Of a DNA stretch of 64,000 bases, positions 15,738 through 51,178 are shown piece by piece (the first letter of the stretch is position 1; each line of letters starts with the position of its first letter). Source of the stretch: an uncultured Eubacteriales bacterium (GTDB taxonomy: Bacteria > Acidobacteriota > Aminicenantia > Aminicenantales > Aminicenantaceae); contig CAYTTR010000005.1 in the NCBI GenBank assembly GCA_964440805.1, positions 19,847-83,846 of the forward strand, written 5' to 3'. The notes beneath the pieces are model-generated. The model made no database searches. It saw only the letters and a program-made list of their open reading frames with translations, and was not told where the DNA came from. The position numbers and the translations under genes are program-made.

Positions 15738-15738
15738 G

Positions 15739-16827
15739 ATGCTCTACTGGTTATTGGTTCCACTCAAAGAGTACTTTTTCTTCTTCAATGTCTTCCGTTA
15801 TATCACTGTCCGGACTGCCATGGCCGGTATCACTTCTCTTGCCATCACTTTGATTCTCGGTTCAATAGCCATCAAACTTCTCAAAAAATACCAGCTTGGG
15901 GAGGAGATTCGAACCGACGGCCCCAAGACTCATCTAAGAAAAAAAGGAACCCCTTCCATGGGAGGAGTTCTGATTATATTTTCCACAGTGGTGACTACTC
16001 TTCTCTGGGGAAATTTGAATGACATCTACATCTGGATTGCTATTTTTACCATGGTAGGCTTCGGTGCTCTGGGCTTCTGGGACGATTACCTGAAAATAAA
16101 GAAAAAAATTAAAGCCGGACTTCCTATGAAGCATAAGTTTGGTTTTCAGTTTCTCCTGGCGGGAACAATTGGCCTTTTTCTTATTTATTTAGGATTCAGG
16201 GGAGACTTCAGCTTGAACCTCCACTTTCCCTTTATCAAAGAATGGATTCCCTACATCGGTTGGTTTTATCTTCCCTGGATTATGCTTATTGTCATCGGGT
16301 CTTCTAATGCAGTAAACTTGGCCGACGGGCTGGACGGACTGGCTATCGGGCTGATATTTATAAGTGCCAGTGCTGTAACCGCCCTTTCCTACATCGCCGG
16401 CCATGCCCTCTGGTCTCAATATTTAAATATCGCCCGGGTTCCCTTAGCGGCTGAATTAACTGTTTTTGCCGGGGCTCTGGCGGGAGCCTGCCTGGGCTTT
16501 CTCTGGTATAACTGTCATCCCGCCGAGATATTCATGGGTGATGCAGGGGCTCTCTCCCTTGGAGGAACAGTAGGAGTTATGGCCCTACTTATAAAACAGG
16601 AATTCCTCCTTTTCGCTATTGCCGGAGTATTTATCCTGGAGGCTCTTTCGGTAATGATTCAGGTAGCCTGTTTTCGCTTTAGTGGTGGAAAAAGAATTTT
16701 TCGCATGGCTCCCCTTCATCATCATTTTGAACTCCTGGGTTGGTCTGAATCCAAAGTAGTAGTTCGCTTCTGGATACTGGGAATAATTTTTGCCCTGTTC
16801 AGTTTAACCACCCTGAAACTGAGATGA
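15739..16827 (+). CDS. mraY: Phospho-N-acetylmuramoyl-pentapeptide transferase
   Basis: KKGTPSMGG, DDYLK, NAVNLADGLDGL, FMGDAG, MAPLHHHFE; ATG 15739 follows a GGGAGG RBS. Confidence 0.97.
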   Translation: MLYWLLVPLKEYFFFFNVFRYITVRTAMAGITSLAITLILGSIAIKLLKKYQLGEEIRTDGPKTHLRKKGTPSMGGVLIIFSTVVTTLLWGNLNDIYIWIAIFTMVGFGALGFWDDYLKIKKKIKAGLPMKHKFGFQFLLAGTIGLFLIYLGFRGDFSLNLHFPFIKEWIPYIGWFYLPWIMLIVIGSSNAVNLADGLDGLAIGLIFISASAVTALSYIAGHALWSQYLNIARVPLAAELTVFAGALAGACLGFLWYNCHPAEIFMGDAGALSLGGTVGVMALLIKQEFLLFAIAGVFILEALSVMIQVACFRFSGGKRIFRMAPLHHHFELLGWSESKVVVRFWILGIIFALFSLTTLKLR

Positions 16828-16830
16828 AAC

Positions 16831-18201
16831 ATGGAACTTAAAAACAAAAAAGTTCTCGTTGTCGGGCTGGAAAAAACCGGAAAAGCAGCCTGCGACTTTC
16901 TTCTTCGCCGGGGTGCCAAAGTCACTATTTCTGAAAAAAAACGCCCCGAAGAAATCAAAAATTATCTTGAAGAATTAGCCGCCAAAGGAGCAATCATCGA
17001 AGCTGGAGGCCACCAGCAGGATACTTTTCTCCAGGCAGATCTTATCATTCCCAGCCCGGGTGTTCCTCTCCTTAAGGAAATAAGGGAAGCAGAAGCCAGA
17101 GACATCCCGGTATTCTCGGAGGTGGAACTGGCCTTCAGATTTCTTCAAGGAAAAATTGTAGGGATTACTGGATCCAATGGAAAATCAACTACTGCCACTT
17201 TAATTCATAAAATTTTAAAAGAAGCTGGAAGGCCTTCTTTTCTTGCCGGAAACATCGGCACTCCCTTGATAAGCTTCATCGAAGGAAGCCGACCAGACCA
17301 TATATATGTAACCGAGCTTTCCAGTTTCCAGTTGACTCACACCCAGTCTTTCAAAGCCCATGTGGGCGTTTTGCTCAATATCACCCCAGACCATCTAGAT
17401 TGGCATCCTTCCTTCATCCATTACTCTGCAGCCAAAAAAAAGCTTATTCTTTCCCTTGAAGAAAAAGATGTAGCTGTCCTCAATAGAGATGATTCCGAAG
17501 TCTGGTCACTACATAGCCAGACCAGGGCTGATGTTTTCGGTTTCAGCCGGCAGCACCAGGTGGATAAAGGAATGTTTATTAGAGAAGGCTGGATTTATTC
17601 TGTCTTCAAAAAACAAAATAAATTCCTGAAAACATCGGACATCCAGCTTTTCGGCCTTCATAATCAGGAAAACGTGATGGCTTCTGCTCTGGCAGCCTGG
17701 TCTCTGGGAGTTAAGGTGCCTAGAATCCGGGATTCCATCCAGACCTTTAAGGGTCTGGAACATAGGCTGGAAAAAGTGTCCACAATCGAGGGGGTGACCT
17801 TTTACAACGATTCCAAAGCCACTAATGTGGATGCCGCTCTGAAGTCAATTCAGAGCTTTCAGCAAAAAATCATTCCTATTCTGGGAGGCAAGGATAAAGG
17901 AGGCGATTTTTCGGCTCTCAGGCCGTTTCTCAAGCAAAAAGCTAAAGCGGTAATTCTTATTGGTGAGGCAGCCGAAAAAATCCTTAAGGAACTACGCAAT
18001 ATTTCTATTCTCCACCAGGCTCATTCCATGAAAGAAGCAGTAGAGAAAGGATTTTCCCTGGCAGATCAGGGAGATATTGTTCTTCTGGCTCCCGCCTGCA
18101 CAAGTTTCGACATGTTTGCCAATTTCGAAGAGAGGGGTCAATGCTTTAAAAAAGAAGTTCGCTCTTTAGAGGAAAAAATCCTTCAGGGAAATAAGAAATA
18201 A
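16831..18201 (+). CDS. murD: UDP-MurNAc-L-Ala--D-Glu ligase
   Basis: SPGVP, GITGSNGKSTT, ELSSFQL, NITPDHLDWH, NDSKATN, PACTSFDMF. Confidence 0.96.
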   Translation: MELKNKKVLVVGLEKTGKAACDFLLRRGAKVTISEKKRPEEIKNYLEELAAKGAIIEAGGHQQDTFLQADLIIPSPGVPLLKEIREAEARDIPVFSEVELAFRFLQGKIVGITGSNGKSTTATLIHKILKEAGRPSFLAGNIGTPLISFIEGSRPDHIYVTELSSFQLTHTQSFKAHVGVLLNITPDHLDWHPSFIHYSAAKKKLILSLEEKDVAVLNRDDSEVWSLHSQTRADVFGFSRQHQVDKGMFIREGWIYSVFKKQNKFLKTSDIQLFGLHNQENVMASALAAWSLGVKVPRIRDSIQTFKGLEHRLEKVSTIEGVTFYNDSKATNVDAALKSIQSFQQKIIPILGGKDKGGDFSALRPFLKQKAKAVILIGEAAEKILKELRNISILHQAHSMKEAVEKGFSLADQGDIVLLAPACTSFDMFANFEERGQCFKKEVRSLEEKILQGNKK

Positions 18202-19313
18202 TGGAAGTTTTCAGACCTTATGGTTTCGATAAACCCCTTTTCCTCGTGGTATTGGGACTGCTGGGTGCCGGGCTGGTTATGGTTTTCAGCTCTTCTGCAG
18301 TCCTGGCTGCCGAAGCATATAACAGCTCCTTTTATTTTATCATCCAACAAGGAATTGGAGCTGGGCTGGGATTGCTGTTTATTTTATTCATCCTTTCGAT
18401 AAGAAAGGCATTCTACCAGAATCCTCTTTTCATCTTCGGGCTTCTTTTAAGCTCCTTCTTTTTGCTCGCCCTATGCCTTACCATGCCGACTTTCAGCGGT
18501 GCCAATCGATGGATTTATTTTTTCGGAATAAGTTTTCAACCTTCGGAATTGGCTAAAATTAGCCTTATTCTTTTCTTTGCTTTCTATATTGATAAGAAAA
18601 AAGAGCTTATCCAGAATGTAAAAAATTTTCTCCTGCCAATGGGAATTCTTTTCCTTTTTATCCTGCTGATTATAAAAGAACCTGATTATGGAACAGCTCT
18701 TCTCGTTTTTATTATTTGTTCTATAATGCTCTTTATTGGTGGATTCAGACTCAGCTATTTTCTAAGCCTTGCAATTCTCAGCATCATTACCTTTGGATTC
18801 TATCTTATCCAGGCTGAATACCGAATAGAAAGGATTCTCGCTTTCCTCTCCCCCACTGAAGATCCTTTGGGCAGGGGATTCCAGGTCATCCAATCCAAAT
18901 TGGCGGTAGGGGCCGGTGGGCTTCTCGGGGTCAGCATAGGAGAAAGCGTACAAAAACTCTACTTTCTGCCTTGTGCCCACACAGATTATATTTTTGCCAT
19001 AATCGGAGAAGAATTAGGACTCCTGGGGACAATGGGTATCTTAACTTTGTTCATTCTATTCCTCTGGAGAGGTCTGGTCATATCCTTAAGAGCTCCCAAC
19101 AGCTTTTCTCAGCTCCTGGCTGCTGGTCTAACCTTAGCTGTTTTTGTTCAAGCTGTTTTCAACATAAGCATCGTCCTGGGATTGGCACCCCCTACTGGAT
19201 TGCCCCTTCCCTTTATCAGCTACGGACGTTCATCTCTGGTTATGACACTTTTTGCTGTCGGGATCCTGCTTCATATTTCTCAAAGAAGAACAAATTTAAA
19301 GGAAAAAGCATGA
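18201..19313 (+). CDS. ftsW: SEDS peptidoglycan polymerase FtsW
   Basis: GANRWI, QPSELAK, EPDYGT, HTDYIFAIIGEELG, GLPLPFISYG. Confidence 0.96.
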   Translation: MEVFRPYGFDKPLFLVVLGLLGAGLVMVFSSSAVLAAEAYNSSFYFIIQQGIGAGLGLLFILFILSIRKAFYQNPLFIFGLLLSSFFLLALCLTMPTFSGANRWIYFFGISFQPSELAKISLILFFAFYIDKKKELIQNVKNFLLPMGILFLFILLIIKEPDYGTALLVFIICSIMLFIGGFRLSYFLSLAILSIITFGFYLIQAEYRIERILAFLSPTEDPLGRGFQVIQSKLAVGAGGLLGVSIGESVQKLYFLPCAHTDYIFAIIGEELGLLGTMGILTLFILFLWRGLVISLRAPNSFSQLLAAGLTLAVFVQAVFNISIVLGLAPPTGLPLPFISYGRSSLVMTLFAVGILLHISQRRTNLKEKA

Positions 19314-20401
19314 GAAAGCAGGCAGTAATTTTTACCGGAGGAGGCACAGGAGGACATCTCTATCCTGCCATTGCGGTCAGTAATAAACTCCGGGAAAAAG
19401 CCCCTGAACTTCGCCTTGTCTTCGTGGGAAGTAAAAGGAAAATTGAGGAAACTCTTATGAAAAAGGAAGGCATAGAATTTTTCAAGCTTCCCATCAAAGG
19501 CTTGAAAGGAAGAGGATTACGGGCTCTGGACACGCTCATGCTTCTTCCTTTCGCTTTCCTGAAATCGCTGATTATTTTCCTTAAGGTCAGGCCTTGCCTT
19601 GTTGTTGGAGCTGGAAGTTATAGCGCAGGCCCATTGGTTCTCCTGGCATCGATGATGAAAACCCCCGCCCTTATCCTCGAACAGAATCTTTTTCCAGGAT
19701 ACACTAATCGCCTTCTTCTCCCCAAAGTTGATAAGGCAGTAGTTGCCTTCGAGGAGTCTCTTCCTTACTTCAAGGGAAAAGGAGTCTTTCTGGGAAACCC
19801 GGTAAGAGAAGATTTCTATTCCATTCCCCCCAAGGAAAGAACAGGACCTCTAACCCTATTGATTTTCGGTGGAAGTCAGGGCTCTCACTTTCTTAACTTA
19901 GCTGTTTTGACCACCCTCCCTTTCCTTCAGAGAGAAAAAAATTCTCTGCTGATATTTCATCAGACCGGACCAAAGGATCTTGAGCTGGTAAAAACCGGCT
20001 ACCAAAAACACAGCTTTCGCTTAGTTAAGGTAGCTGCTTATTTTCATAACATGGCCGAATTCTTCAGTAAATCTGACCTAATCATCTGCCGGGCAGGAGC
20101 AACCACCATCGCTGAAATTATAGCCGCAAAAAAAGCTGCTCTCCTTATTCCTTTTTCCCGGGCCACTGAAGACCATCAACTTCAGAACGCTCGCTTATTA
20201 GCAGAGAAGAAAGCAGCGGAATTAATGACTGAAGAAAATTTTAGCCCAGAAAACTTAGCTGCTAAAATCTTGGGTTTTCTGGAAAACAGGGAGAGTCTTG
20301 ACCAGTTTGAAAGGAATCTGGATTCGTTCCGTTCAGAAGATACGGCCGGAAAGATTGCAGGGCTTTGTTTCCAAATGATGAAGAACAGGAAAAAGGAGTG
20401 A
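19310..20401 (+). CDS. murG: Lipid I N-acetylglucosamine transferase MurG
   Basis: GGGTGGH, EQN, GNPVR, GGSQG, RAGATT, HQLQNA; start ATG 19310 (ATGA overlap with ftsW), not 18971. Confidence 0.96.
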   Translation: MRKQAVIFTGGGTGGHLYPAIAVSNKLREKAPELRLVFVGSKRKIEETLMKKEGIEFFKLPIKGLKGRGLRALDTLMLLPFAFLKSLIIFLKVRPCLVVGAGSYSAGPLVLLASMMKTPALILEQNLFPGYTNRLLLPKVDKAVVAFEESLPYFKGKGVFLGNPVREDFYSIPPKERTGPLTLLIFGGSQGSHFLNLAVLTTLPFLQREKNSLLIFHQTGPKDLELVKTGYQKHSFRLVKVAAYFHNMAEFFSKSDLIICRAGATTIAEIIAAKKAALLIPFSRATEDHQLQNARLLAEKKAAELMTEENFSPENLAAKILGFLENRESLDQFERNLDSFRSEDTAGKIAGLCFQMMKNRKKE

Positions 20402-21795
20402 ATCAATTGGTAGATCACATCTACAGCAAACTAAAACACATCCACATGGTGGGAATCGGCGGTACAGGAATGAACGGTATCGCTGAAGTCCTGCTTAACC
20501 TCGGATATAAAGTCTCGGGAACAGACCTTCAAGAAAACGAAGCCACTCATCGCTTAAGAAACTTAGGGGCGAAAATATGGAAAGGACATAAGGCCGAGCA
20601 TATACAAGGAGCAGATGTTGTGGTTATTTCTTCGGCCATAAAGAAAGGCAACGTGGAAGTTGAAGAAGCTAAAAAACTTAAGATTCCAGTTATTCCCAGA
20701 GCGGAGATGCTGGCTGAGCTGATGCGTCTAAAAATGGGGATTGCAGTAGCGGGCTCCCACGGAAAAACATCCACCACCTCCATGATCGCCCAGGTTTTAG
20801 AACAGGCAGGATTTGACCCAACTGTCATTGTGGGAGGCAGATTAAACACGGTTGGTGCCCATGGAAAGCTGGGTGAAGGAACTTTTATTGTGGCTGAGGC
20901 TGATGAAAGCGACCGTTCTTTTCTTTATCTTTCTCCCTTTATAGCAGTTTTGACTAACTTAGATGAAGAACATCTCGACCAGTACAGGACTGTGGAAGAA
21001 ATCAAAAAAACATTTGCATCCTTTGCCAATAAGGTTCCTTTTTACTGTCCGGTTATACTCTGTCTTGATGACCCCAACCTGCAAAGCCTCATTCCTTCCT
21101 TAGAACGCCGTATCATAACCTATGGTTTTTCCGCCCAGGCTGATATTTACGCTCAGGAACAGACATTCAATGAATTCTCAAGTTCCTCTACTATTTACTG
21201 GAAAGGTAAAAAACTGGGAACTCTCAGGCTAAATGTCCCCGGTCTTCACAGTATTTACAACGCCATGGCTGCCGCAGCTGTAGGCCTTGACCTGAACATT
21301 CCTGTTTCCACTATCCTTAAAGGACTGGAAGCTTACCAGGGAATAGGGCGGCGTTTTGAGCTCAAAAAAACAATAAACAATATCATGCTAATTGAAGATT
21401 ATGCCCATCACCCTACCGAAATAAAAGCTACTCTTGACGCCGCTAAAAAAGGATGGTCCCGGCGCATTCTGGCTGTTTTCCAGCCCCATCGTTACACCCG
21501 CCTTTTCCAATTGATGAAAGAGTTCGCCACTTCTTTCAATCAGGCCGACTCTCTTATAATTAGCGAAATTTACCCAGCAGGAGAAGATCCAATTCCTGAT
21601 GTTACGGGAGAAAAACTTTTTCAGGAAATTCAGCTTTTTGGACATAAAAATGTGCTTTTTGAGCCAGAACTCGAAAGAATTCCTTCTCTTTTGAAAAAGA
21701 TAACCAAGCCGGAAGACATGATTTTCATTCTCGGAGCCGGCAACATTAGCCAAATCATCCCTGATATCATCAGACAACTGGGAGGCAAGAAATAG
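20398..21795 (+). CDS. murC: UDP-N-acetylmuramate--L-alanine ligase
   Basis: GIGGTGM, AGSHGKTSTT, EADESD, DYAHHPTEI, FQPHRYTR; start is GTG 20398 or TTG 20407. Confidence 0.96.
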   Translation: MNQLVDHIYSKLKHIHMVGIGGTGMNGIAEVLLNLGYKVSGTDLQENEATHRLRNLGAKIWKGHKAEHIQGADVVVISSAIKKGNVEVEEAKKLKIPVIPRAEMLAELMRLKMGIAVAGSHGKTSTTSMIAQVLEQAGFDPTVIVGGRLNTVGAHGKLGEGTFIVAEADESDRSFLYLSPFIAVLTNLDEEHLDQYRTVEEIKKTFASFANKVPFYCPVILCLDDPNLQSLIPSLERRIITYGFSAQADIYAQEQTFNEFSSSSTIYWKGKKLGTLRLNVPGLHSIYNAMAAAAVGLDLNIPVSTILKGLEAYQGIGRRFELKKTINNIMLIEDYAHHPTEIKATLDAAKKGWSRRILAVFQPHRYTRLFQLMKEFATSFNQADSLIISEIYPAGEDPIPDVTGEKLFQEIQLFGHKNVLFEPELERIPSLLKKITKPEDMIFILGAGNISQIIPDIIRQLGGKK

Positions 21796-40518: not shown

Positions 40519-43416
40519 TTAATGACAAATGCAGGCTGCTACTAGGACAAGAGGGTGAACCACCGGAATTTCCCCTGGCAGCTCTAAATACCTGGTACTA
40601 AAATACTTTGTCAGAGCCTTGTCCTCCGGTTCAAAATTCTTTATTCCCAGCATTTTTCTAATTTGCAGCCGGCAGGTCACACAGGGAGAAACCACAATTT
40701 CCGGATTAACGGAACGAATTTCTTGAATCAATTCTTCTCCTATCTTCTCTGCATGGGAAGCCCATCGCTTCTCGAATCCCCGGCTCCCGCCAAAGCCGCA
40801 GCAATTGGTTTTCAATTCAATAACCTCGGTTCCTGGGAGAGGCCTTAGAAAATCGAGCAATGATTTCTCTTTTCCCAGCACTTTAAGGTGACAGGGAACC
40901 TGCACCGCCACTTTCAGCCGGGAAAAACCGGCTAAGGCTCCAGTCTCCTTATTAAAGAGAGTTGACTTTAATATAACCTCGTCATTACTTTTATATTCTA
41001 CTTTTTTCTGAAGAAAAAGATTGTTGATAAAATCAACAGCTTCATGAAACAATCTTTTTCCATTTTCCTCTATTAAGAACCCGGAGAAAGAAACAGCGTG
41101 ATCACGAAAGGGAATCATACAGGAAGGCGAGGTAAAGAGAACCGGAATTCTCTCATCAAGGTATGGTTTTAATTTTTTCAACGATTCTTCTAATTGAAAC
41201 GAAGCTTTTTTTGTCAAACCGCGGACAAAGGCAGGCTCACCGCAGCAGAGACCGCTGATCATTTCCACTTTATAGTTGAATTTTTCCAAAAGCTTAAAAG
41301 CCGCCTTGACTTCTGAAGAATTAAAGAAATCTCCTGAACAGCCTGAAAACAAGACCGCTTTTTCTTTTTCTTGATTTATTTCATCTTCACCCTCTTCCCT
41401 TTTAAGAAAATCAAATTTCAGGGAATCCAGATTGGCCATTCCTGAAACAGCAGCAAGCTTTTTAGTAAGCCTGAAATTAAGTGCTTTCCCGGATAAGGGC
41501 CACAAGCTGCGGACAAACTTACCCATTCGTCTCGATCGGGATAAAAGTCTATCAGAAAGAGGAGCCGGCTTGTGTTTATATTTTTCCTCAAAATAGGTTT
41601 CAATCAAGCTGGCTACATCCACTTTAGTCCCGCACTCCCTCTGACATGTTTTACAGTGAAGACAGAGGTTGAAAAATTCATTTAAATCTTCACGTTCAAA
41701 AGGCTTTTTCAGGTGGCCGGCAATGATTTCTCTTAATAAATTAATCCTGGCTCTGGAAAGTGCTCTCTCCCCCCGTTCGCTCCGGATTACCGGGCAAAAA
41801 CTCACACACTTCCCGCAGCCATGACAATCTTCAATTTCAACCGTTAATCGATTTAAAGCCCCGGAGCCTTTATGTCTATAACCTTCGTAGTATTTCAAGA
41901 AATCCTTTACCCCGTAATTCCGGACAGGGACAATGGATAAAGGATTTAACCTGAAATCAGGGTCGAATATTTTCTTGAGCCTTTGAAAATAGGGATAAAC
42001 ATTGCCCCAGATTTCTTTTAAATAGGGAGTGCGGAGAAGGCCATCCCCATGCTCGCCCGAAGGAACTCCTTTGAGACTGCGGGAAAAAAGAGCATGCTCC
42101 CGGCCCAATTGTTCAATTAAATCCGGAAATCCAGGGGACATTCTGTTTAAGCGGGGCGAAAAATGGAGAAGCCCCTGACCGGCATGACCGAAAAGAGCGG
42201 CCGAGGTGTTGTATTTTTGGAGAAGTTTCTCCAGTCCCATAACAAAATCAAGCAACCTCTCAGCCGGCACAGCAGCATCTTCTATCCAGCGGACCGGTTT
42301 TTTCCCGGGAAGACGGGAAAGATAAGCGGCAGCGGAGCGCCGGATAGCCCAGACCCAGGCCATCTCAGCCGGCTCTTCAGCTAAGCGGGATGAAAAAGCA
42401 GAAGAACGTCTGATAAGTTCTCTGGCCCGCCTCTCAAGATCCTGAGGGTTGCTTCCATCAAATTCAGCCAGGATAAAAAACTCAGTGCCTTTGGGAAGCC
42501 GGTTATAATTCTCCGGTTCTTCAGAAGCAATAATCCTTAAAAACTCCTGAGCCAGAACTTGAATAGTGGAAGGTTTTAAATCCAGAAAATCCTTAACTTC
42601 TGAAAAGGCCTGAAGATGGTCTTTATAGGAAAGGAGTACTGAATATCTAAGAGGAGGAATTGGGGCAAGAGTTAGGGTTATTTCAGAAAAAATTCCCAGG
42701 GTACCCTCAGAACCGCAAAAAATTCTGGTTAAATCCACACCTTCCTGTGATAAAGCCTCAAATAAATTATAACCACATGAGTTCCTGAAACTTTGCGGCT
42801 TATTCTTAGCGAGAACAGGCCGGGCTTCTCTCAGCAGCTCTTCGACCTGATTTTTATATTTTACCGGAGCGGAACCGGAATTGGTGACCATAATCTCTTC
42901 TGCTTCCGGGGTAATAACTTTCAGGCTTTTTATGTAATTTTTGGTGGTCCCGTAGAGCAAAGAATGAGCTCCCCCTGAATTATTGGCCGTCATGCCGCCC
43001 AGAGAGGCATAATCCGAGGAAGACGGATCAGGAGGAAAAAACAATCCCTGAAGTCTGATTGCTTTGAGTAAGTCCGACCGGATAAGACCGGGCTGAACAG
43101 TTACAGAAGGCTCAGCTCGATTTAAATGAATAAGCTTATTCATATGGACTGAAAAATCAAGGATAATCCCTTCTCCCAGATTTTGGCCGGCTACACCAGA
43201 GCCGCAACCTCTGGCTGTTAGAGGGATGTCTTCCTCTGCCGCAATTCGTACTGCTTGAAGGACATCCTCCTTATCAAGAGGATAAATTACACCGGCCGGG
43301 ATTAAATAACAGATAGAAGCTGAGTAAGCATAAAGTCTCCTGGTCAGCTCGTCAAAAAAAACTTCTCCTTTTATTTTTTGAGCGAATTGCTTTTTAACAG
43401 ATGATGATATTTCCAT
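40519..43416 (-). CDS. FAD-linked oxidase/Fe-S/CCG-domain oxidoreductase (YdiJ/GlcDF-like 2-hydroxy-acid dehydrogenase family)
   Basis: RGCGSGVAGQ, FPPDPSS, GSEGTLG, GHAG.G.LH, SGEHGDG, CHGCGKCVSFCP, CLHCKTCQREC, two CCG motifs. Confidence 0.9.
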   Translation of the reverse strand: MEISSSVKKQFAQKIKGEVFFDELTRRLYAYSASICYLIPAGVIYPLDKEDVLQAVRIAAEEDIPLTARGCGSGVAGQNLGEGIILDFSVHMNKLIHLNRAEPSVTVQPGLIRSDLLKAIRLQGLFFPPDPSSSDYASLGGMTANNSGGAHSLLYGTTKNYIKSLKVITPEAEEIMVTNSGSAPVKYKNQVEELLREARPVLAKNKPQSFRNSCGYNLFEALSQEGVDLTRIFCGSEGTLGIFSEITLTLAPIPPLRYSVLLSYKDHLQAFSEVKDFLDLKPSTIQVLAQEFLRIIASEEPENYNRLPKGTEFFILAEFDGSNPQDLERRARELIRRSSAFSSRLAEEPAEMAWVWAIRRSAAAYLSRLPGKKPVRWIEDAAVPAERLLDFVMGLEKLLQKYNTSAALFGHAGQGLLHFSPRLNRMSPGFPDLIEQLGREHALFSRSLKGVPSGEHGDGLLRTPYLKEIWGNVYPYFQRLKKIFDPDFRLNPLSIVPVRNYGVKDFLKYYEGYRHKGSGALNRLTVEIEDCHGCGKCVSFCPVIRSERGERALSRARINLLREIIAGHLKKPFEREDLNEFFNLCLHCKTCQRECGTKVDVASLIETYFEEKYKHKPAPLSDRLLSRSRRMGKFVRSLWPLSGKALNFRLTKKLAAVSGMANLDSLKFDFLKREEGEDEINQEKEKAVLFSGCSGDFFNSSEVKAAFKLLEKFNYKVEMISGLCCGEPAFVRGLTKKASFQLEESLKKLKPYLDERIPVLFTSPSCMIPFRDHAVSFSGFLIEENGKRLFHEAVDFINNLFLQKKVEYKSNDEVILKSTLFNKETGALAGFSRLKVAVQVPCHLKVLGKEKSLLDFLRPLPGTEVIELKTNCCGFGGSRGFEKRWASHAEKIGEELIQEIRSVNPEIVVSPCVTCRLQIRKMLGIKNFEPEDKALTKYFSTRYLELPGEIPVVHPLVLVAACICH

Positions 43417-43494
43417 TATTTCTTTGATTGAAAATTATGCGTTAAAGTAAAGCATTCGGACAATTTTTATCTTTCCGGTAAAATAAGAAAACTA

Positions 43495-43523
43495 ATTATA
43501 AGGTGATTAAACCCCTAAAACAA
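43495..43523 (-). promoter_or_regulatory. Candidate sigma70 promoter of the FAD/Fe-S oxidoreductase
   Basis: Minus strand TTGTTT, 17 bp spacer, TATAAT. Confidence 0.45.
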
Positions 43524-43525
43524 GT

Positions 43526-43546
43526 AAAAAAGGGGGACGTTCCCCT
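43526..43546 (-). terminator. Candidate intrinsic terminator after the 43551-44156 lipoprotein gene
   Basis: Minus strand GGGGA-ACG-TCCCC then CTTTTTT, directly after the stop codon. Confidence 0.5.
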
Positions 43547-43550
43547 ATCT

Positions 43551-44156
43551 TTATTTGACAAGATTCCGGACGGTTAAATTGAAGACATCCTTTGCCCTGC
43601 ACTCTTTGGTTACAGGATAAGCATCAATAAGATTCCGCAGGGACTCTTGATTTAATTCATCGAATTGAAAATCAAGGAAAATGAGATTTTTCTTTCCCTC
43701 AACAAGATAGACATATCTTGTTTCCTGGTAATAATCCCAGCAAATACCGACTTTATCGAGATCCAAAAGGTAGTTAAATTCATCTTGTTGGATAATTTGA
43801 GGCGTTAACTTTCCCGGCTGAACTTTCATGATGACTTTTTGAACCGGGCTCCATGAAAGAGTATCTTTATCGAACCTGCTAAAGTCAGAAAAATAATAAA
43901 TTGGGCCCAATTCTTCATCATCATGAATACCCATAAATACGCCGATAATTATTTCATCCGCATTATAATATGATTTATGCATTTCTTGACCCATAGAACG
44001 CTGGAATGGCTTCAGTACAAAACCGCGCGGCACAGGAGGTGGAGCGGGTTCAGCCTTAGCTGGTTCTGGCTCGACTTTGGGAGCTCTGGCACAGCTTGTA
44101 ACCAGTGCAGCCGCTAAAATAATATAAGTTTCATACCTAATGAACTTTTTAAACAT
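43551..44156 (-). CDS. Hypothetical lipoprotein
   Basis: Lipobox LVTS-C, Pro-rich linker, GGAG RBS. Confidence 0.75.
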   Translation of the reverse strand: MFKKFIRYETYIILAAALVTSCARAPKVEPEPAKAEPAPPPVPRGFVLKPFQRSMGQEMHKSYYNADEIIIGVFMGIHDDEELGPIYYFSDFSRFDKDTLSWSPVQKVIMKVQPGKLTPQIIQQDEFNYLLDLDKVGICWDYYQETRYVYLVEGKKNLIFLDFQFDELNQESLRNLIDAYPVTKECRAKDVFNLTVRNLVK

Positions 44157-44328
44157 TTTATCCGACTCTCCGTTTTCAGATAAATTGAAATCAATTTTCT
44201 TAAGAAGCCCCAGTTTAGTTAAATTCCAGAATAAAGTCCACTTTGATTAAGTTTCTCTCTTTTCCCCAGGATAATTGACCGCCGGGAAAGTCTGTGCTAT
44301 AGAAAAAGAAAAAATAAAAGAAAACAAT

Positions 44329-45549
44329 ATGAACAAAAAACCAAAAGATTCCAACCATTCTTCAGAAAAATTCTCTGCCTCTTTAACAGAGAATGAACCT
44401 CCTCCGCCTGAAATAAACTCAAAAAATTCCCCAAACGCTATAAACGCAACAAACGCTATTAACTCCCATGATACAGGGGGCAATTTTTTTCCTCTTGATG
44501 AAGCCTCTTCCCACATTCTTGAATTGACCGCTGAGCTGGAGGCTCAACGAAAAGTGGCCATGAACAGCTCCCTTCCTCTTGAAAAGCGCTTGGAGGCCTT
44601 CGAAGACATTATGGAGTCGGAAATAGGCGATACCGCGCTTCATCGTGCCCGGAACATTGAACGAGAAGTCGGACTGCGCCAGATATATTTAAAATTTGAA
44701 GGAGGGAACCCCACCGGTACCCAAAAAGACAGGATAGCTTTTTCCCAGGCAATGGATGCTCTTCGGGCCGGTTACCAAAGCATAACCACAGCAACTTGCG
44801 GAAATTACGGAGTAGCTGTAGCCCTGGCAGCTTCTCTGGCCGGATTAAAGTGCATTATTTTTATTCCTGAAAACTATCATACCAAAAGGGCTCAGGAAAT
44901 GATTTCTTTCGGGGCTGAACTCCGCCGAGTTCCCGGTGATTATGAAAGAACGGTCATTATCTCCCGCGAATTTGCCGAATCGGAAGAAGAAGTTTACGAT
45001 GCCAACCCGGGAGGAGCCAATACCATTTTGCAGCTCAAAGCTTACGGTGAAATCGCTTATGAAATATATGACGAACTGCGTGACGCCCCATCAGCCTTGG
45101 CTGTTCCGGTTTCCAACGGAACCACTCTGGCTGGAATCCACCGGGGGTTTCTTAGTCTTTACCGGCGGGGAAAAACCTCCAAGGTTCCCCAGATGATAGG
45201 CGGTTCATCTTACCGGAAAAATCCCATAATCCATGCTTTCATAAAAAATATCTCTACATGCCAGGATTTAAAGCCTGAACAAATTAAAGAAACCGCCATA
45301 AACGAGCCCCTGATAAACTGGCAATCAATTGACGGAGATCAGACCTTGGCTGCCATCCGATTATCCCAAGGCTGGGCCGCTTATGCCAGCGACAAAAGCA
45401 TGCTTTACTTCTCACGTCTTATCCGGGAGCAAGAAGGTCTCAACATATTACCTGCCGCCACTGCCGGACTAATTGCTCTTTTAGAAAAGCATAAAAGAGA
45501 GACCCTTCCAAATGATCGTTATGTAGTTATTTTAACAGGGAGAAAATAA
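44329..45549 (+). CDS. PLP-dependent fold-type II enzyme, threonine synthase-like with divergent motifs
   Basis: GDT.L.RARN, LKFEGGNPTGTQKDR (PLP Lys), ATCGNYG, VPVSNGTTLAG, VVILTG. Start placed at ATG 44329; the TTGACC at 44275 may be a -35 element rather than a start. Confidence 0.88.
   Translation: MNKKPKDSNHSSEKFSASLTENEPPPPEINSKNSPNAINATNAINSHDTGGNFFPLDEASSHILELTAELEAQRKVAMNSSLPLEKRLEAFEDIMESEIGDTALHRARNIEREVGLRQIYLKFEGGNPTGTQKDRIAFSQAMDALRAGYQSITTATCGNYGVAVALAASLAGLKCIIFIPENYHTKRAQEMISFGAELRRVPGDYERTVIISREFAESEEEVYDANPGGANTILQLKAYGEIAYEIYDELRDAPSALAVPVSNGTTLAGIHRGFLSLYRRGKTSKVPQMIGGSSYRKNPIIHAFIKNISTCQDLKPEQIKETAINEPLINWQSIDGDQTLAAIRLSQGWAAYASDKSMLYFSRLIREQEGLNILPAATAGLIALLEKHKRETLPNDRYVVILTGRK
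44413..44466 (+). repeat. Six degenerate 9 bp units in the disordered N-terminus (INS KNS PNA INA TNA INS)
   Basis: ataaactca aaaaattcc ccaaacgct ataaacgca acaaacgct attaactcc. Confidence 0.65.
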
Positions 45550-46634
45550 TGACATCTTCCCTCCCTGAAGGAAATGCGATTGTCTATTGTGAAGGAGCCT
45601 TCGAGACTCCCAACGGCAAAACAGCTCATGGCCTTGTCCGTTTTTCTAAAAGATACAAGGTCCTTTCAGTTATTGATTCCCGTTTAGCTGGAAATGATGC
45701 CGGTGGAGTCTTAAACGGGCGGCCCAAAGGAATTCCTATTGTAAAAAATCTAAAGGCTGCTCTTGATTCAGCCCGCCGGCAAAACCTTAAGGCTACTCAT
45801 TTTGTTTTTGGAGTCGCCCCTGATGGAGGAAGATTTACTGCCTCTGACCGGGAAGCCATCCGCGAAGCCATTCTCATGGGGCTTAATGTAGATTCCGGCC
45901 TCCATGATTTCATGACGGATGACCCGGAACTAAGCGCCTTGGCCCGGGATGCCGGCGTCAAGCTTCGTGATGTAAGAAAACCTCCTCCTCCCTCCTCTCT
46001 CCACTTTTTTAACGGCAAAATCGAAGAAGTAACCTCTTTGAAAGTGGCTATGCTGGGAACAGATTCAGCGGTGGGAAAAAGAACCACGGCTTGGGTTCTG
46101 GTAAAGGTTCTTAATTCAAGCGGCCACAGGGCTGAACTTATCGGGACCGGCCAGACCGCCTGGCTGCAAGGTGTCCGCTACGGAATAATCATGGATTCCC
46201 TGATAAATGATTTTGTTTCCGGCGAAATTGAGCATGCCGTCTGGACTGCCTGGAAAGAAGCCTGTCCTGAGGTGCTGGTTATTGAAGGACAAGGAAGCTT
46301 AATGAATCCAGCCTACCCCGGCGGCTTCGAAATTCTGGCTGCCGGCCGCCCCGATGCAATTTACCTCCAGCATGCTCCGGCCCGCAAAGAATATGACGGC
46401 TTTCCCGGTTATCCTATCCAGCCTATTGAAACGCAGATCCAAGCTATAGAGCTTCTTTCCGGAAAACCGGTTATTGCCATCACCATCAATCACGAAAAAC
46501 TCAATGAAGACCAGATTGCCCGGGAAATCGTTTCTCTTAACCGGCGAACAGGCCTCCCCGTTATTGATCCTCTCCATTGTCAACCCTCGGAAATCATTGC
46601 TCCTCTTTTTCCCTATTTGAAAAAAAGACAATAA
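45549..46634 (+). CDS. DUF1611 protein, DgcN-like D-glutamate N-acetyltransferase family
   Basis: GKTAHGL.R, SGLH, GTDSAVGKRTT, TGQT, DFVSG..E, EGQGSL. Confidence 0.9.
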   Translation: MTSSLPEGNAIVYCEGAFETPNGKTAHGLVRFSKRYKVLSVIDSRLAGNDAGGVLNGRPKGIPIVKNLKAALDSARRQNLKATHFVFGVAPDGGRFTASDREAIREAILMGLNVDSGLHDFMTDDPELSALARDAGVKLRDVRKPPPPSSLHFFNGKIEEVTSLKVAMLGTDSAVGKRTTAWVLVKVLNSSGHRAELIGTGQTAWLQGVRYGIIMDSLINDFVSGEIEHAVWTAWKEACPEVLVIEGQGSLMNPAYPGGFEILAAGRPDAIYLQHAPARKEYDGFPGYPIQPIETQIQAIELLSGKPVIAITINHEKLNEDQIAREIVSLNRRTGLPVIDPLHCQPSEIIAPLFPYLKKRQ

Positions 46635-46662
46635 AAGAGATAATATTGCTCCTGAGGTGCAA

Positions 46663-49020
46663 ATGACTTCCAAGAAAAGCAGTTCGGCCGGAGCTTCACT
46701 CGACCCGCTCAAAGTTATTTCATCGCTTGAAATCGGACCGGTCAAGATAGAACCACGTAAGCTAATTGCTCCCTATGAAGTTAAAAAAGACAACTTATCC
46801 TCGACCACAGAATTTATATGCAGTTATGATGAAGACGTTTTTGATCCCGGCAATCCGGTCTCCATAAATCTGGCTCAGGTGATGGCTGCTCAGGTTGCCT
46901 TGAACTACGGATTATTCGCCCATGAAATTATATTTCGCGGCCCCTATGATGCCATTGACAAACGTTTCATCACGGACATGATGGAAAACACTTCCCGGGA
47001 GATTTATGTAAAAAAATTTCTGGAACCGAATCCTTTTCTCAAAGGCCAGGCTTCACAACTTACTCCTGTCCGCCAGCCTCGTTACACTCAGGCTGTACTC
47101 AAATTCCCGGATTCCCCGCTTAAGGGGAAAAACACTGCTCCTTATAAAACATTTCTTCATTTGGATCAAAACCGCCACCTTGTTCTCTCCAGCGGAGGAA
47201 AAGACAGCCTTCTGAGCTTTGGTCTTCTCAAAGAGCTGAACCGGGAAACTCACCCTGTATTTATTAATGAATCAGGGCGCCACTGGTTTACTGCTCTTAA
47301 TGCTTTCCGGAATTTTTCCAAAAATTATGCTGGGACAGCCCGGGTCTGGACAAATTCGGACCGCCTTTTCAGCTGGATGCTCCGTCTTTTTCCTTTCATA
47401 AGAGAAGATTTTCCCTCAGTACGTTCGGATGAGTATCCCATAAGACTCTGGACTGTTGCTGTTTTCCTATTCGGCGCTTTACCTATAATGTTTAAGCGAA
47501 AAATAGGCCGTTTGGTTATCGGAGATGAATTCGACACCACTACCAGAATGAGTTTTAAGGGCATAACTCATTATAACGGTCTTTACGATCAAAGCCGCTA
47601 TTTCGATAATGTCTTAACCCGTTATTATCAAAAAAAGGGCTGGAACATCCATCAGTTTTCTCTTCTTAGGCCTTTGTCCGAGCTGCTGATTGAAAAAACC
47701 TTGTATGAACGCTACCCCCACCTGCAAACCCAACAAATGTCCTGTCACGCAGCCCATATAGAAGGAGATCGTGTCCGTCCTTGTGGAAAATGCGAAAAGT
47801 GCCGCCGTATAGTCGGCATGCTGCTGGCTTTTGACGGGAACCCGGAAAACTGCGGCTATACCCGGGGGCAGGTCCAACAATGCTTAAAGGCAATCTCTGA
47901 AAAAGGGGTTCACCAGGAACCTGCAGGGGCAAAGCACTTAGCCTATCTTCTAAAAAAGAAGGGAATAGTTTCCACCTCCTCGGCCGCCTTCAAAGCGAAA
48001 GAGCATCCTGAAATAATGAAAGTGCGGATTGATCCGGAAAAATCACCCTTTGATACCGTTCCTCTTGATCTGCGCCGGCCCCTTTTTAAAATATTTTTAA
48101 CCCATGCCTCAGGAGTGGTCAAGCGAGTCGGCCGGCAATGGGTTGAATTCGATCCTTTTAATGATCCCTCTTTCAGCCGGCCTCTCGATTTTAAAAAAGC
48201 CGGCAAGAACAATCGGGACAAAAAAAATCCGGCCGCCCTGCCTTCCTATCTTCTGGGTGAGCTCAGCTGGCCGGAAGCTAAAGCTTATCTGCAGAAAGTT
48301 GATATTGCTCTTCTTCCGGTTGGGGCAACCGAACAGCACGGCCCACATCTCCCTCTGGACACCGATGCCTTTGATGCTGATCTTCTGGCAAGAAAGGTGG
48401 CTGAAGCCTGCAGTGATCCCAAACCTTTGGTCCTTCCTCTTATTTCTTACGGGGTTTCATATCATCATGAGGATTTCAGCGGAACAATAAGCATCAGTCC
48501 TGACTCTCTATCCCAGCTTGTCTATGAAGTGGGCATGTGTGTAGCCAGGCAAGGTATAACCAAACTGGTCATTATCAACGGCCATGGAGGAAATATTCCT
48601 GCCCTCCATTTCGCAGCTCAGAAAATAAACCGCGACTCTCATATTTTCACCTGTGTGGAAACAGGAGAAACCAGCGAGAAAGATATGTCTTCAATTATAG
48701 AAACTCCTAATGATGTTCATTCCGGAGAAACGGAAACCAGTACTGCCCTGGCTGCCAGGCCTCACTTGGTTAGGATGGACAAGGCCAGGCGATTCGTCCC
48801 CAAATTTTCCATTAAATATCTTAATTTCAGCTCCAAGAGAAGAGTAGACTGGTACGCCCGGGTTTCCAAAATTTCCTCAACCGGAGTTCTGGGCGATCCC
48901 ACCAAGGCAACCCGTCAAAAAGGTGAACAAATCTGGGAAGTCATGGTTAAACATTTAGTTGAATTTGTGGAAGAGTTAAAAAGCCTTACTCTCGAAGAAA
49001 TCTATCAGAAAAAGTATTAA
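46663..49020 (+). CDS. Fusion of a PP-loop/Cys4 (MurL/QueC-like) ATP-dependent domain and a C-terminal creatininase-family amidohydrolase
   Basis: N-domain: LSSGGKDS, GDEFD, FSLLRPLSELL, SCH..PCGKCEKC. From about 48247: LGELSWPE, PVGATEQHGPHLPLDTD, NGHGGN, DVHSGETETS, GVLGDP. Confidence 0.88.
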   Translation: MTSKKSSSAGASLDPLKVISSLEIGPVKIEPRKLIAPYEVKKDNLSSTTEFICSYDEDVFDPGNPVSINLAQVMAAQVALNYGLFAHEIIFRGPYDAIDKRFITDMMENTSREIYVKKFLEPNPFLKGQASQLTPVRQPRYTQAVLKFPDSPLKGKNTAPYKTFLHLDQNRHLVLSSGGKDSLLSFGLLKELNRETHPVFINESGRHWFTALNAFRNFSKNYAGTARVWTNSDRLFSWMLRLFPFIREDFPSVRSDEYPIRLWTVAVFLFGALPIMFKRKIGRLVIGDEFDTTTRMSFKGITHYNGLYDQSRYFDNVLTRYYQKKGWNIHQFSLLRPLSELLIEKTLYERYPHLQTQQMSCHAAHIEGDRVRPCGKCEKCRRIVGMLLAFDGNPENCGYTRGQVQQCLKAISEKGVHQEPAGAKHLAYLLKKKGIVSTSSAAFKAKEHPEIMKVRIDPEKSPFDTVPLDLRRPLFKIFLTHASGVVKRVGRQWVEFDPFNDPSFSRPLDFKKAGKNNRDKKNPAALPSYLLGELSWPEAKAYLQKVDIALLPVGATEQHGPHLPLDTDAFDADLLARKVAEACSDPKPLVLPLISYGVSYHHEDFSGTISISPDSLSQLVYEVGMCVARQGITKLVIINGHGGNIPALHFAAQKINRDSHIFTCVETGETSEKDMSSIIETPNDVHSGETETSTALAARPHLVRMDKARRFVPKFSIKYLNFSSKRRVDWYARVSKISSTGVLGDPTKATRQKGEQIWEVMVKHLVEFVEELKSLTLEEIYQKKY

Positions 49021-49023
49021 AAA

Positions 49024-50088
49024 ATGCGGATAACAGGTATTGAAGTTTATTCTGTCTCCATGCCTCTGGCCGATCCTTACACCATTGCCTACCAGACTGT
49101 AGAAAAAGCAACCAATGTCTTTCTTCATTTAAAAACAACCGGCAGAGAAGTCGGGTTCGGCTGCGCTGCACCCGACATTTATATCACTAAAGAAACGCCG
49201 GAAGGAGTAGAAAAGGCTCTCCGGGAAACAGCCTTTCCGGAGATAAAAGGCTCTGACCCCCTCAGAGTTGCCTTAGTCCTGGAAAAAGTGAGACGCAGCC
49301 TGGACAAGCAACCTTCAGCCCTGGCTGCCCTGGATATGGCCCTCCATGACCTCCTGGGAAAGGTAAGCAACCTCCCTCTCTGGAAGCTTTTAGGAGGCTT
49401 CAGGGACCGCATCAAAACCAGCATCACTATTGGTATTTTATCTGAGGAAGAAACAATCAGACGGGCCAGGGATTTTGTAGTCAGAGGCTTTAAATCAATA
49501 AAAATAAAAGGCGGTAAAGACGTTGAGGATGATATCCTTAGGGTGCTTCGGGTAAGAGAAGAAGTCGGACCCAGAGTAGAGCTTCGTTTTGATGCCAATC
49601 AAGGCTATACCGAAGAACAAGCATTGAAATTTGTTGAAAAAACCCGCAGCGCTAAGCTGGAGCTTCTCGAACAACCAACTCCCAAAGGTCATCCAGATCT
49701 TCTCGGCCGGGTAACCTCAGCGGTTCATATACCGGTGATGGCTGATGAAAGCCTTCTCACCCTCCGCGATTCTTTCAGGTTAGCCCGGAGGGATCTGGTG
49801 GATATGGTCAATGTAAAGCTTATGAAGGTAGGGGGGATATTTACGGCTTTGGAGATAAATGCGGTGGCCAAGTCTGCCGGCCTTGAAGTAATGGTAGGCT
49901 GCATGGATGAATCTGCCCTGGGAATTGCAGCCGGTCTTCATTTTGCCCTGGCCAGGCCAAACGTTATTTATGCCGACCTGGACGGCCATCTTGATCTACA
50001 AGGAGATCCGGCTGAAGGAGCGGTCATTTTAAAAGAAGGGATTCTCTATCCATCAAACAAGCCCGGTCTGGGATTTAACCTCGAGTAA
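49024..50088 (+). CDS. Enolase-superfamily dipeptide epimerase, DgcA-like N-acetyl-D/L-Glu racemase
   Basis: KIK, DANQGY, EQP, ADES, NVKLMKVGG, MVGCM.E, DLDG (DxD of Ala-Glu epimerases). Confidence 0.92.
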   Translation: MRITGIEVYSVSMPLADPYTIAYQTVEKATNVFLHLKTTGREVGFGCAAPDIYITKETPEGVEKALRETAFPEIKGSDPLRVALVLEKVRRSLDKQPSALAALDMALHDLLGKVSNLPLWKLLGGFRDRIKTSITIGILSEEETIRRARDFVVRGFKSIKIKGGKDVEDDILRVLRVREEVGPRVELRFDANQGYTEEQALKFVEKTRSAKLELLEQPTPKGHPDLLGRVTSAVHIPVMADESLLTLRDSFRLARRDLVDMVNVKLMKVGGIFTALEINAVAKSAGLEVMVGCMDESALGIAAGLHFALARPNVIYADLDGHLDLQGDPAEGAVILKEGILYPSNKPGLGFNLE

Positions 50089-50137
50089 ACTAAATATTTC
50101 TCTCTGCCTTTATCTTGGCTTCTTTTTTCTGGGTATT

Positions 50138-51178
50138 TCAGTTCAATCTACGGTATAGTCCCATAGCTTTCCTGGCTTCAGCAATAACCTGGGAAGCTAT
50201 CTTCCTGGACTTCTCCGCTCCTCTGGTAAGAACATCATGAATGCAGTGAGGATTAGCACGAAGTTCTTCTGCTTTTTTTCTAATCGGAGCCAAAACCTTA
50301 TCCATGTTGACCAAAAGTCTTTTCTTACATTCCAGGCATCCAATTGAAGCGGTTGTACATCCTTTCTCAATTTGCACCAGTTCTTCCGGCGGAGAAAAAT
50401 AGCGATGATAGCTCATGAAAATATTACAATCCTCAGGAACTCCGGGATCACTCCGGAGTTTGCGCCGCTCATCGGTCTTAGCAGGAGCAAGTTTTTTCCA
50501 GATGTTCTCCGGCGGTTCCAGCATACCGATTGTATTACCCAAACTCTTAGACATTTTGTTCTCTCCATCAAGCCCCAGAATTCTTTTGGCTTCAGAAAGA
50601 TAAGCTTGGCATTCCGGAAAAACCACTCCGAAGCGGGAATTGAATTTACGAGCGATTTCCCGGGCAATCTCAATGTGCTGCACCTGATCTTCACCAACAG
50701 GGACAGCACTTGCTTTGTAAAGAAGAATATCGGCGGCCTGGAGTACAGGGTAAGTAAAAAGGCCCACATTCACGTTTTCCTGATGTTGGTTCGCTTTCTG
50801 TTTAAATTGGGTCATCCGGGCCAGGTCACCAAACTGAGTAACCGTACTGAACATCCAGGTAAGCTCAGTATGTTCTTTGACCTCGCTCTGGACAAAAAGA
50901 GTACAGCGTTCCGGGTCAAGTCCGGCAGCTATATTGGCCACAGCGGCATCGAATATTCGGCTCGGCATTTCCTTCGGCTTATATTCGATAGTAGTTGCGT
51001 GGTGATCAACTATACAAAAGAAACATTCATAATCTTCAAGAAATTTAACCCAATTGGAAATGGCACCGAGATAATTCCCGATATGAAGCTCACCGGTAGG
51101 CTGAATGCCTGAGAAAACCCTGATTTTGCCTTCATTATTATAGTAAGTAAGATAACCTTTTTCATCTCTTTTCATCAT
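50138..51178 (-). CDS. trpS: Tryptophan--tRNA ligase
   Basis: FSGIQPTGELHIGNYLG, YPVLQAADIL, VPVGEDQ..H.E, KMSKS; start approximate. Confidence 0.96.
   Translation of the reverse strand: MMKRDEKGYLTYYNNEGKIRVFSGIQPTGELHIGNYLGAISNWVKFLEDYECFFCIVDHHATTIEYKPKEMPSRIFDAAVANIAAGLDPERCTLFVQSEVKEHTELTWMFSTVTQFGDLARMTQFKQKANQHQENVNVGLFTYPVLQAADILLYKASAVPVGEDQVQHIEIAREIARKFNSRFGVVFPECQAYLSEAKRILGLDGENKMSKSLGNTIGMLEPPENIWKKLAPAKTDERRKLRSDPGVPEDCNIFMSYHRYFSPPEELVQIEKGCTTASIGCLECKKRLLVNMDKVLAPIRKKAEELRANPHCIHDVLTRGAEKSRKIASQVIAEARKAMGLYRRLN

Follow-up and report, generated by a model that had tools for sequence, protein, structure and literature searches.

What does a predicted ATP-binding domain that recalls the peptidoglycan epimerase MurL do when it is joined to an amidohydrolase? 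This question is raised by a gene at positions 46663 to 49020 (+ strand) of a 64,000-nucleotide stretch of DNA from an uncultured Eubacteriales bacterium (assembly GCA_964440805.1, contig CAYTTR010000005.1, positions 19,847 to 83,846), here called the window and numbered from its first letter. The gene is the third of a four-gene cassette that also encodes a pyridoxal phosphate (PLP) enzyme, a DUF1611 protein and a dipeptide epimerase. Its product is a fusion protein, whose N-terminal part had been proposed in an earlier note, made from the sequence alone, to be a distant MurL paralogue that adenylates and epimerises a C-terminal residue. We found that the first ~520 residues are a divergent member of the MurL superfamily and that the fusion protein is not a MurL orthologue. 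With regard to its reaction, we tentatively favour a divergent MurL-superfamily ATPase in which adenylation would be followed by inversion, with the tethered hydrolase finishing the reaction.

Kinship of the fusion protein with MurL

The open reading frame (ORF) of the fusion protein starts at 46657 (GTG) or 46663 (ATG) and ends at 49020 on the + strand. A database entry, P0002, is 100% identical and its length of 785 aa fits the ATG at 46663, from which residues are numbered here; the GTG-based reading of 787 aa adds 2. The features of the gene are the following.

46663..49020, + strand: fusion gene (cassette gene 3), 785 aa, the subject of the finding
46663..47157, + strand: N-terminal subdomain, residues 1-165, alpha/beta, RNase H-like topology
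47164..47838, + strand: QueC/MurL-like PP-loop ATP-pyrophosphatase core, residues 168-392, with a predicted Cys4 knuckle
47188..47208, + strand: PP-loop motif SSGGKDS, conserved in 30-31 of 33 family members
47521..47535, + strand: GDEFD, containing E289
47653..47691, + strand: QFSLLRPLSELLI, a motif common with MurL (FSLLRPLSEL)
47740..47802, + strand: Cys4 cluster SCH-x11-CGKCEKC (C361, C374, C377, C380), invariant or nearly so in both families, with SCH at 47740-47748 and CGKCEKC at 47782-47802
47839..48222, + strand: C-terminal, mostly helical subdomain of the N-terminal half, residues 393-520, confident in the model
48259..48969, + strand: creatininase-family metal amidohydrolase domain of the HGGN (MftE/3no4-like) type, Pfam PF02633

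All five motifs named in the earlier note were located at the positions it had given, with one correction: the spacer between SCH and CGKCEKC is 11 residues long and not 8. The beta strand that it had placed ahead of GDEFD is predicted in the AlphaFold model (strand at residues 281-285, GDEFD at residues 287-291), and its domain boundary near 48246 agrees with the Pfam Creatininase match, which begins at residue 535 of the 787-aa reading, that is at nucleotide 48259. The family is large, with 2960 proteins at E≤1×10−3 among 8000 scored candidates. In 436 cluster representatives (50% identity, E≤1×10−3) the named motifs fall on invariant or near-invariant columns, and given this conservation across the family they are not due to chance.

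A Pfam search with residues 1-520 gave no match. In NCBIfam the sole match of these residues was the MurL model NF041275 (E = 2.3×10−8), and the fusion protein fails the equivalog cut-off of this model with 33 bits against 700. The match spans model positions 257-338 of 447 and protein residues 311-389 only. A six-frame search of the genome gave a second, collinear weak match to the model over the PP-loop (model positions 120-172, 11.4 bits), and the fusion gene was the only match to the MurL model in the genome. The model also weakly matches 6 of 26 diverse members of the family.

For comparison, nine MurL-like genes were taken from nine genomes of a 401-genome sample from another phylum. Two of them score ~300 bits over the full NF041275 model and are likely true MurL. 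One of these two, L090, is directly followed by a gene for a MurD-family ligase (264 bits, cut-off 212), an arrangement that we take to be the same as that of the MurL/MurD2 pair of Xanthomonas. GGGKDS and C..C.KC are present in all nine MurL-like proteins and FSLLRP in the two best. The motif order that the earlier note had given for MurL (GGGKDS, NE.S, FSLLRP, SCN, WC..C.KC) was seen in MurL-like proteins of this set. The fusion protein carries the motifs of the MurL superfamily collinearly (GGGKDS, NE.S, His, FSLLRP, SC(N) and C..C.KC), with the variants SGGKDS, DEFD and SCH. Common to both, in the same order, are thus a (S/G)GGKDS PP-loop, a Glu, a His, a Ser, FSLLRP(L)SEL and SC(H/N)...C..C.KC, and the ATPase half is in both ~450-520 aa long.

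The profile of the fusion family (an alignment of 33 sequences) was compared by hhalign with the nine MurL-like proteins, giving a probability of 98.0% (E = 2.5×10−13, 324 columns) over residues 20-389 of the fusion protein and positions 10-341 of 447, at ~18% identity. For the PP-loop core alone against the MurL-like core the probability was 98.7% (E = 1.6×10−16, 186 columns). The N-subdomain matched the N-terminal part of MurL weakly and in the correct register (E = 1.3×10−3); off-diagonal controls between the parts gave E values of 0.2-0.6, and the C-subdomain against the MurL-like C-terminal part was not significant (E = 0.15). The fusion protein differs from MurL by its low identity and by a C-terminal subdomain that cannot be aligned. 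Compared with L090 as a single likely MurL, the family gave 93.3% (E = 2.6×10−7, 193 columns), and in a like-for-like control with the genome's own QueC 6% (E = 0.006). In BLASTP, the fusion protein was 46% identical to a likely MurL over 52 residues (E = 3×10−7).

Residues conserved to at least 85% in both families are the PP-loop, Pro259, Glu289, His303, Ser333, Ser360-Cys361, Cys374, Cys377, Lys379 and Cys380. The PP-loop of the fusion protein aligns with the GGGKDS that is invariant in the MurL-like proteins (9/9), and E289 of GDEFD (present in 29/33 family members) aligns with their invariant NE.S Glu (E238, 9/9). Of the 30 clusters nearest to it in the ESM Atlas, 27 belong to a set with the Pfam families MurL_N and MurL_epimerase_C (PF26298 and PF26299), and one cluster that bears the name of the MurL epimerase scores 0.95. 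The MurL resemblance claimed for the N-terminal part thus holds for its first ~390 residues, with homology past the PP-loop and profiles nearer to MurL than to QueC. We conclude from these sequence comparisons that the N-terminal half is a true but distant MurL homologue or paralogue.

The seven remaining MurL-like genes (L092-L098, from genomes G198, G253, G295, G099, G093, G196 and G143, or 7 of the 401) are paralogues scoring 104-124 bits, in which GGGKDS and C..C.KC are present and FSLLRP is absent; one of them lies in an open frame of 897 aa. They suggest that the MurL superfamily has more unstudied branches.

The other half of the fusion protein is a full-length match to Pfam PF02633 Creatininase (E = 3×10−71, 240.1 bits, gathering threshold 31.3), a domain that is not part of MurL. 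The best NCBIfam model was MftE (163.7 bits against a cut-off of 172), and the creatininase model gave 105.9 bits against a cut-off of 235. The positions E-x-H...D, GHGGN and H..ETS align with those of Pseudomonas creatininase, where we take them to be the metal-ligand and His positions, and E122 is replaced by Gly. The hydrolase domain is intact, with the creatininase metal and His positions kept. Creatininase proper has GHYEN where the fusion protein has GHGGN. Like MftE, the hydrolase domain belongs to PF02633, which it matches over its full length, and MftE is its best NCBIfam model, but it falls just below the MftE cut-off, and Pfam and NCBIfam scans of the cassette showed no genes for mycofactocin.

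Fold and genome context

The AlphaFold model of residues 1-520 has a predicted local distance difference test score (pLDDT) of 91.7 and a predicted template modelling score (pTM) of 0.91. Its top Foldseek matches in the PDB were QatC, QueC, Cap9 and TtuA (E = 5×10−6 to 1×10−3). An independent fold search (VIA) aligned residues 169-394 with Cap9 (9nto_B) and with QueC (3bl5_A) at Z = 12.9, and further PP-loop enzymes came next at Z 8-10; QueC, Cap9, argininosuccinate synthetase, TtuA, TilS and LarE were among the matches at Z 9-12.9. The QueC and Cap9 structural alignments cover 174-189 residues. With its SGGxDS loop and a modelled Rossmann-like alpha/beta fold, the core has the hallmarks of a PP-loop ATP pyrophosphatase, and we conclude that it is predicted to be a QueC-like PP-loop fold with a Cys4 knuckle, which presumably binds zinc. 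The N-subdomain folded alone with a pLDDT of 84.6, and its weak fold matches (best Z 6.5; Foldseek E = 3.5×10−4, TM 0.36) show only a topology of the general RNase H type, from which no function can be read. A PDB sequence search with the N-terminal half gave a chance match only (E = 1.8).

No MurL entry was among the PDB matches listed in either fold search, and the structure search can therefore not separate MurL from QueC. According to the earlier note, a best structural match to QueC together with MurL similarity confined to the PP-loop would speak against a MurL relationship. The first part was found, as QueC-like structures are the best; the second was not, as the sequence similarity to MurL extends beyond the PP-loop. 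In our reading, the QueC-like PP-loop group has expanded, and MurL and the fusion-protein family are two of its branches.

These structural matches raise the alternative that the gene encodes a QueC paralogue with a 7-deazapurine as its substrate, which would work in the metabolism of queuosine or archaeosine or as a defence ligase of the Cap9 or QatC type. Cap9 belongs to type IV cyclic oligonucleotide-based anti-phage signalling systems (CBASS) and QatC to QatABCD; QueC, Cap9 and QatC (as a group PDB 3bl5, 2pg3, 9nto and 9y01/9y02) have the PP-loop and the Cys cluster in common with the fusion protein and are the best solved matches to the core. Fold and Cys4 cluster are QueC-like, and annotations at JGI add '7-cyano-7-deazaguanine synthase' to many family members. 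The fusion protein is, however, more than twice as long as QueC, with extra N- and C-subdomains, and the QueC hidden Markov models miss it: TIGR00364 (six genome matches) does not match the fusion gene at E≤1×10−3, the true QueC lies elsewhere (187.9 bits), and Pfam QueC (PF06508) reached only E = 0.2 over 28 residues. Neither que nor other deazapurine genes, and no CBASS, Qat or other defence partners, were present in the cassette. With the QueC models silent and no partner genes, a QueC function was rejected as highly improbable.

A second alternative is that the protein is a true MurL orthologue that feeds D-Glu to peptidoglycan in place of a missing MurI. The genome (94% complete) indeed has no glutamate racemase above cut-off (best 31.6 against 146.65 bits) and no D-amino-acid transaminase above cut-off (best 124 against 277 bits), and the fusion gene is its sole match to the MurL model. 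The score of that match, however, is far below the cut-off, and the only MurD above cut-off in the genome (window 16849-18162) belongs to an ordinary mur cluster ~28 kb upstream of the cassette. No Mur ligase or MurD2-type partner was found in or beside the cassette in ORF, Pfam and NCBIfam scans.

Nor does the distribution of the gene follow that of MurI. A sample of 151 genomes from the same class (completeness filter 90%) yielded 18 with the N-domain and 45 with MurI, and 8 of the 18 carriers also have MurI. In the genome's own family (f1) MurI was found in 0/29 sampled genomes and the N-domain in only 9/29, whereas all 8 N-domain carriers of family f9 also have MurI. Complete carrier genomes have MurI in three of five cases, and the database lists a homologue of 512 aa (34% identity) for a Thermoplasmatota archaeon. 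The partner epimerase, moreover, has Gln at the position of YkfB Arg24, which we take to be a Glu-binding residue. The MurL-type genome context suggested earlier, in which absence of murI is linked to the gene and MurD2 is its partner, was thus not borne out: no MurD2 adjoins, and presence of the gene is independent of MurI. The peptidoglycan route to D-Glu was rejected on the MurL score, the lack of an adjoining Mur ligase and the independence from MurI, and we regard it as very improbable. The cassette is not tied to peptidoglycan synthesis.

Some observations on the wall genes themselves may be added. The window carries four Mur-ligase-family matches in series at 13193-21444 (+ strand), MurD (16849-18162) being flanked by three weaker ones; this region is presumably the mur cell-wall cluster. 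The genome, in which no racemase was above cut-off, still has a normal mur cluster. In family f2, glutamate racemase was above cut-off in 0 of 38 sampled genomes (at least 90% complete).

A candidate reaction and its alternatives

According to two publications on MurL (PMC5808125, PMC8788868), the enzyme depends on ATP and Mg2+, yields AMP and acts in one direction only, from L to D, and the mechanism proposed there is adenylation, epimerisation and hydrolysis. Following this precedent, the PP-loop of the fusion protein would bind ATP, and a free carboxylate would be adenylated with release of pyrophosphate. As substrate we would expect a small dipeptide-like or N-acylated amino acid whose alpha-carboxylate at the C-terminus becomes adenylated. 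Stereochemistry at the activated residue would then be lost via an enolisable adenylate or a cyclic oxazolone-type intermediate, and the last step, in which an amide is opened or cleaved, would fall to the tethered amidohydrolase of the creatininase/MftE type. Overall, a scaffold that the enolase-type dipeptide epimerase handles reversibly would be processed in one direction and driven by ATP, with the gene acting in a self-contained four-gene cassette outside peptidoglycan synthesis.

The steps of this scheme differ in strength. Adenylation of a carboxylate by the N-terminal domain is likely. A small dipeptide-like or N-acyl amino acid is the probable substrate, because a dipeptide epimerase and a DgcN-like protein are encoded as partners. 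Resolution of the adenylate by inversion and hydrolysis, in which the tethered hydrolase would open or cleave the intermediate, is put forward from our analysis with considerable doubt.

Several points weigh against an epimerase. The operon already has a second epimerase, which makes such a role partly redundant; that two epimerases share the operon had been expected in the earlier note, and an enolase-type dipeptide epimerase is indeed present by Pfam, NCBIfam and PDB matches and by residue alignment. The nearest solved structures are QueC, Cap9 and QatC, which form amides and do not invert centres. Identity to the MurL-like proteins is only ~18%, and the MurL model gives 33 bits where its cut-off is 700. 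The C-subdomain has no detectable similarity to MurL (E = 0.15) and that of the N-subdomain is weak (E = 1.3×10−3). Finally, the mechanism of MurL is itself unsolved according to the same publications (PMC5808125, PMC8788868), and the Glu, His, Ser and Lys common to both families can therefore not be assigned to epimerisation. Given the second epimerase, the low identity to MurL and the unsolved MurL mechanism, the epimerase reading is best held as a plurality view.

The adenylate could instead be captured by an amine, the domain being an amide ligase, cyclase or transamidase that forms a dipeptide or cyclic amide for the enolase epimerase. The fused amidohydrolase would then supply the amine in the manner of an amidotransferase, or later cleave the bond stereoselectively, and the enolase-type epimerase would do all of the inversion. 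Capture of an adenylate by an amine is the chemistry of QueC, Cap9, QatC, NAD synthetase and asparagine synthetase, the first three of which are the best solved structural relatives of the domain, and glutamine-dependent NAD synthetases, which combine a hydrolase with a PP-loop domain, are in the fold list at Z 7.4-8.4. Pfam and NCBIfam scans revealed no other obvious ATP-dependent peptide ligase in the cassette, inversion already has a dedicated epimerase in the operon, and this epimerase keeps the DxD that presumably binds a free N-terminal ammonium, so that a true dipeptide seems required. On the other hand, the profiles place the domain much nearer to MurL than to QueC, we know of no creatininase-family member that releases ammonia, and the DUF1611 protein has a P-loop domain and could itself be a ligase or acyltransferase. 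On balance, amide formation is conceivable and rather unlikely.

If the preferred reading, adenylation followed by inversion, is carried further, one-way ATP-driven inversion of a C-terminal residue as in MurL would also occur outside the MurD2/MurL wall route. It would reside in a horizontally spread cassette found in more than 10 bacterial phyla, with a simpler form in wall-less archaea, where a MurL-like domain and a tethered cyclic-amide or peptide hydrolase would make or dismantle a dipeptide with a D-residue or a cyclic derivative of it. We regard this extension as speculative and, as a whole, unlikely; if true, it would be a new general route for D-amino acids in anoxic sediments. Should the domain be an epimerase, ATP-driven stereo-inversion would be far commoner than thought, and should it be a ligase, the MurL clade would span two chemistries.

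Some consequences hold for either chemistry. MurL is called an 'unprecedented' epimerase without known conserved domains in reviews (PMC5808125, PMC8788868). The comparisons above place a PP-loop and a Cys cluster in MurL-like proteins and relate these by profile to a family with a predicted QueC-like core. This family is large and unstudied, and work on MurL can now draw on comparison with it: the Glu, His, Ser and Lys common to both families are obvious targets for mutation. The cassette is compact and widespread, and its presence in a cultured carrier, Desulfosarcina variabilis, makes direct testing possible.

The four-gene cassette

The other three genes of the cassette are the following.

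44275..45549, + strand: cassette gene 1, fold-type II PLP enzyme, threonine-synthase-like (Pfam PALP, E = 1.6×10−54)
45549..46634, + strand: cassette gene 2, DUF1611 protein, DgcN-like (DUF1611, E = 2.1×10−60; DUF1611_N, E = 6.2×10−25)
49024..50088, + strand: cassette gene 4, enolase-superfamily dipeptide epimerase (Pfam MR_MLE_C and MR_MLE_N)

The genes are closely packed, with an overlap of 1 nt between the first two and gaps of 28 and 3 nt thereafter. A promoter and terminator scan over 43400-50400 was uninformative, and no RNA runs were listed for the operon.

Related loci were collected from one-genome-per-species contigs with a pattern made from a 14-sequence alignment, and a relative was encoded in 574 of the 585 matching stretches. 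The best 80 loci, which are biased to close relatives, were analysed. They come from many phyla and include the cultured D. variabilis (L061) and strain NaphS2. All five parts were present in 57/80 loci, with identical order and strand in all 57. Where enough flank was available, the PLP gene was found in 69/70 loci, DUF1611 in 68/74, the hydrolase in 69/73 and the epimerase in 58/66. Of the 72 loci that hold both the ATPase half and the hydrolase, 71 have the two fused in a single uninterrupted frame. Five Desulfobacterales loci have the PLP gene and the fusion only, and two loci keep the epimerase while the hydrolase is absent. No other conserved neighbour of the cassette was found among the 80 loci. 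The gene has a patchy distribution and is accessory, as would be expected of a mobile cassette. No paper describing the cassette, and nothing new on MurL since 2019, was found in the literature searched, subscription journals being outside its reach. The fusion protein represents a new and widespread branch within the MurL/QueC-like PP-loop group, and the cassette that encodes it is undescribed; its setting beside genes for a PLP enzyme, a DUF1611 protein and a dipeptide epimerase sets it apart from MurL.

The first gene matches the NCBIfam model PRK06381 'threonine synthase' with 416 bits (cut-off 266), and its best PDB matches are threonine synthases (~83-100 bits). A phospho-amino-acid substrate, considered from the threonine synthase alignments, was dropped, as residue roles could not be assigned without a source. 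The longest ORF of this gene, with a TTG start, adds ~70-110 residues (window 44275-44560, + strand) before the region that is aligned in most relatives, and translation may in fact begin further downstream than this TTG at 44275. In a few close relatives, however, the alignment spans 412-425 residues, and the N-terminal extension may therefore be real in this lineage.

The DUF1611 protein has PDB matches to 2g0t, 2obn and 7xrj. In the DgcN-DgcA system, D-glutamate is converted by a DUF1611 N-acetyltransferase and an enolase-type racemase of N-acetyl-D-Glu. The cassette proteins are far under the respective cut-offs (DgcN 148.8 against 480 bits, DgcA 158.5 against 400), and the DUF1611 protein is not a DgcN orthologue. 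The cassette epimerase is nearer to dipeptide epimerases, and the cassette differs further from DgcN-DgcA in having a PLP enzyme and the ATPase-hydrolase fusion. The best PDB matches of the epimerase were 3rit (245.6 bits), YkfB 1jpm (235 bits) and 3jva (231.3 bits). Apart from the change of Arg24 to Gln, the alignment keeps the KxK, the second Lys, the metal ligands and the DxD (as DLD), to which we assign the roles that these residues presumably have in dipeptide epimerases.

Three minor observations concern neighbouring or joined genes. In one metagenome contig a protein of 855 aa (P0124) joins a DUF1611/DgcN-like half (residues 73-352) to a MurL-like domain (residues 371-851); it may connect cassette genes 2 and 3 in the manner of a Rosetta-stone protein, although it is the single member of its cluster and possibly a gene-call artefact. 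A 965-aa ORF with Cys-rich CxxCxxC stretches lies on the opposite strand ~0.9 kb upstream of the cassette (window 40519-43416, − strand). The commonest extra gene in the related loci encodes a YitT-family membrane protein (YitT_membrane plus DUF2179), which follows the cassette in 12/80 loci (e.g. L031:9440-10303 and L056:6750-7616) and may transport the substrate or the product.

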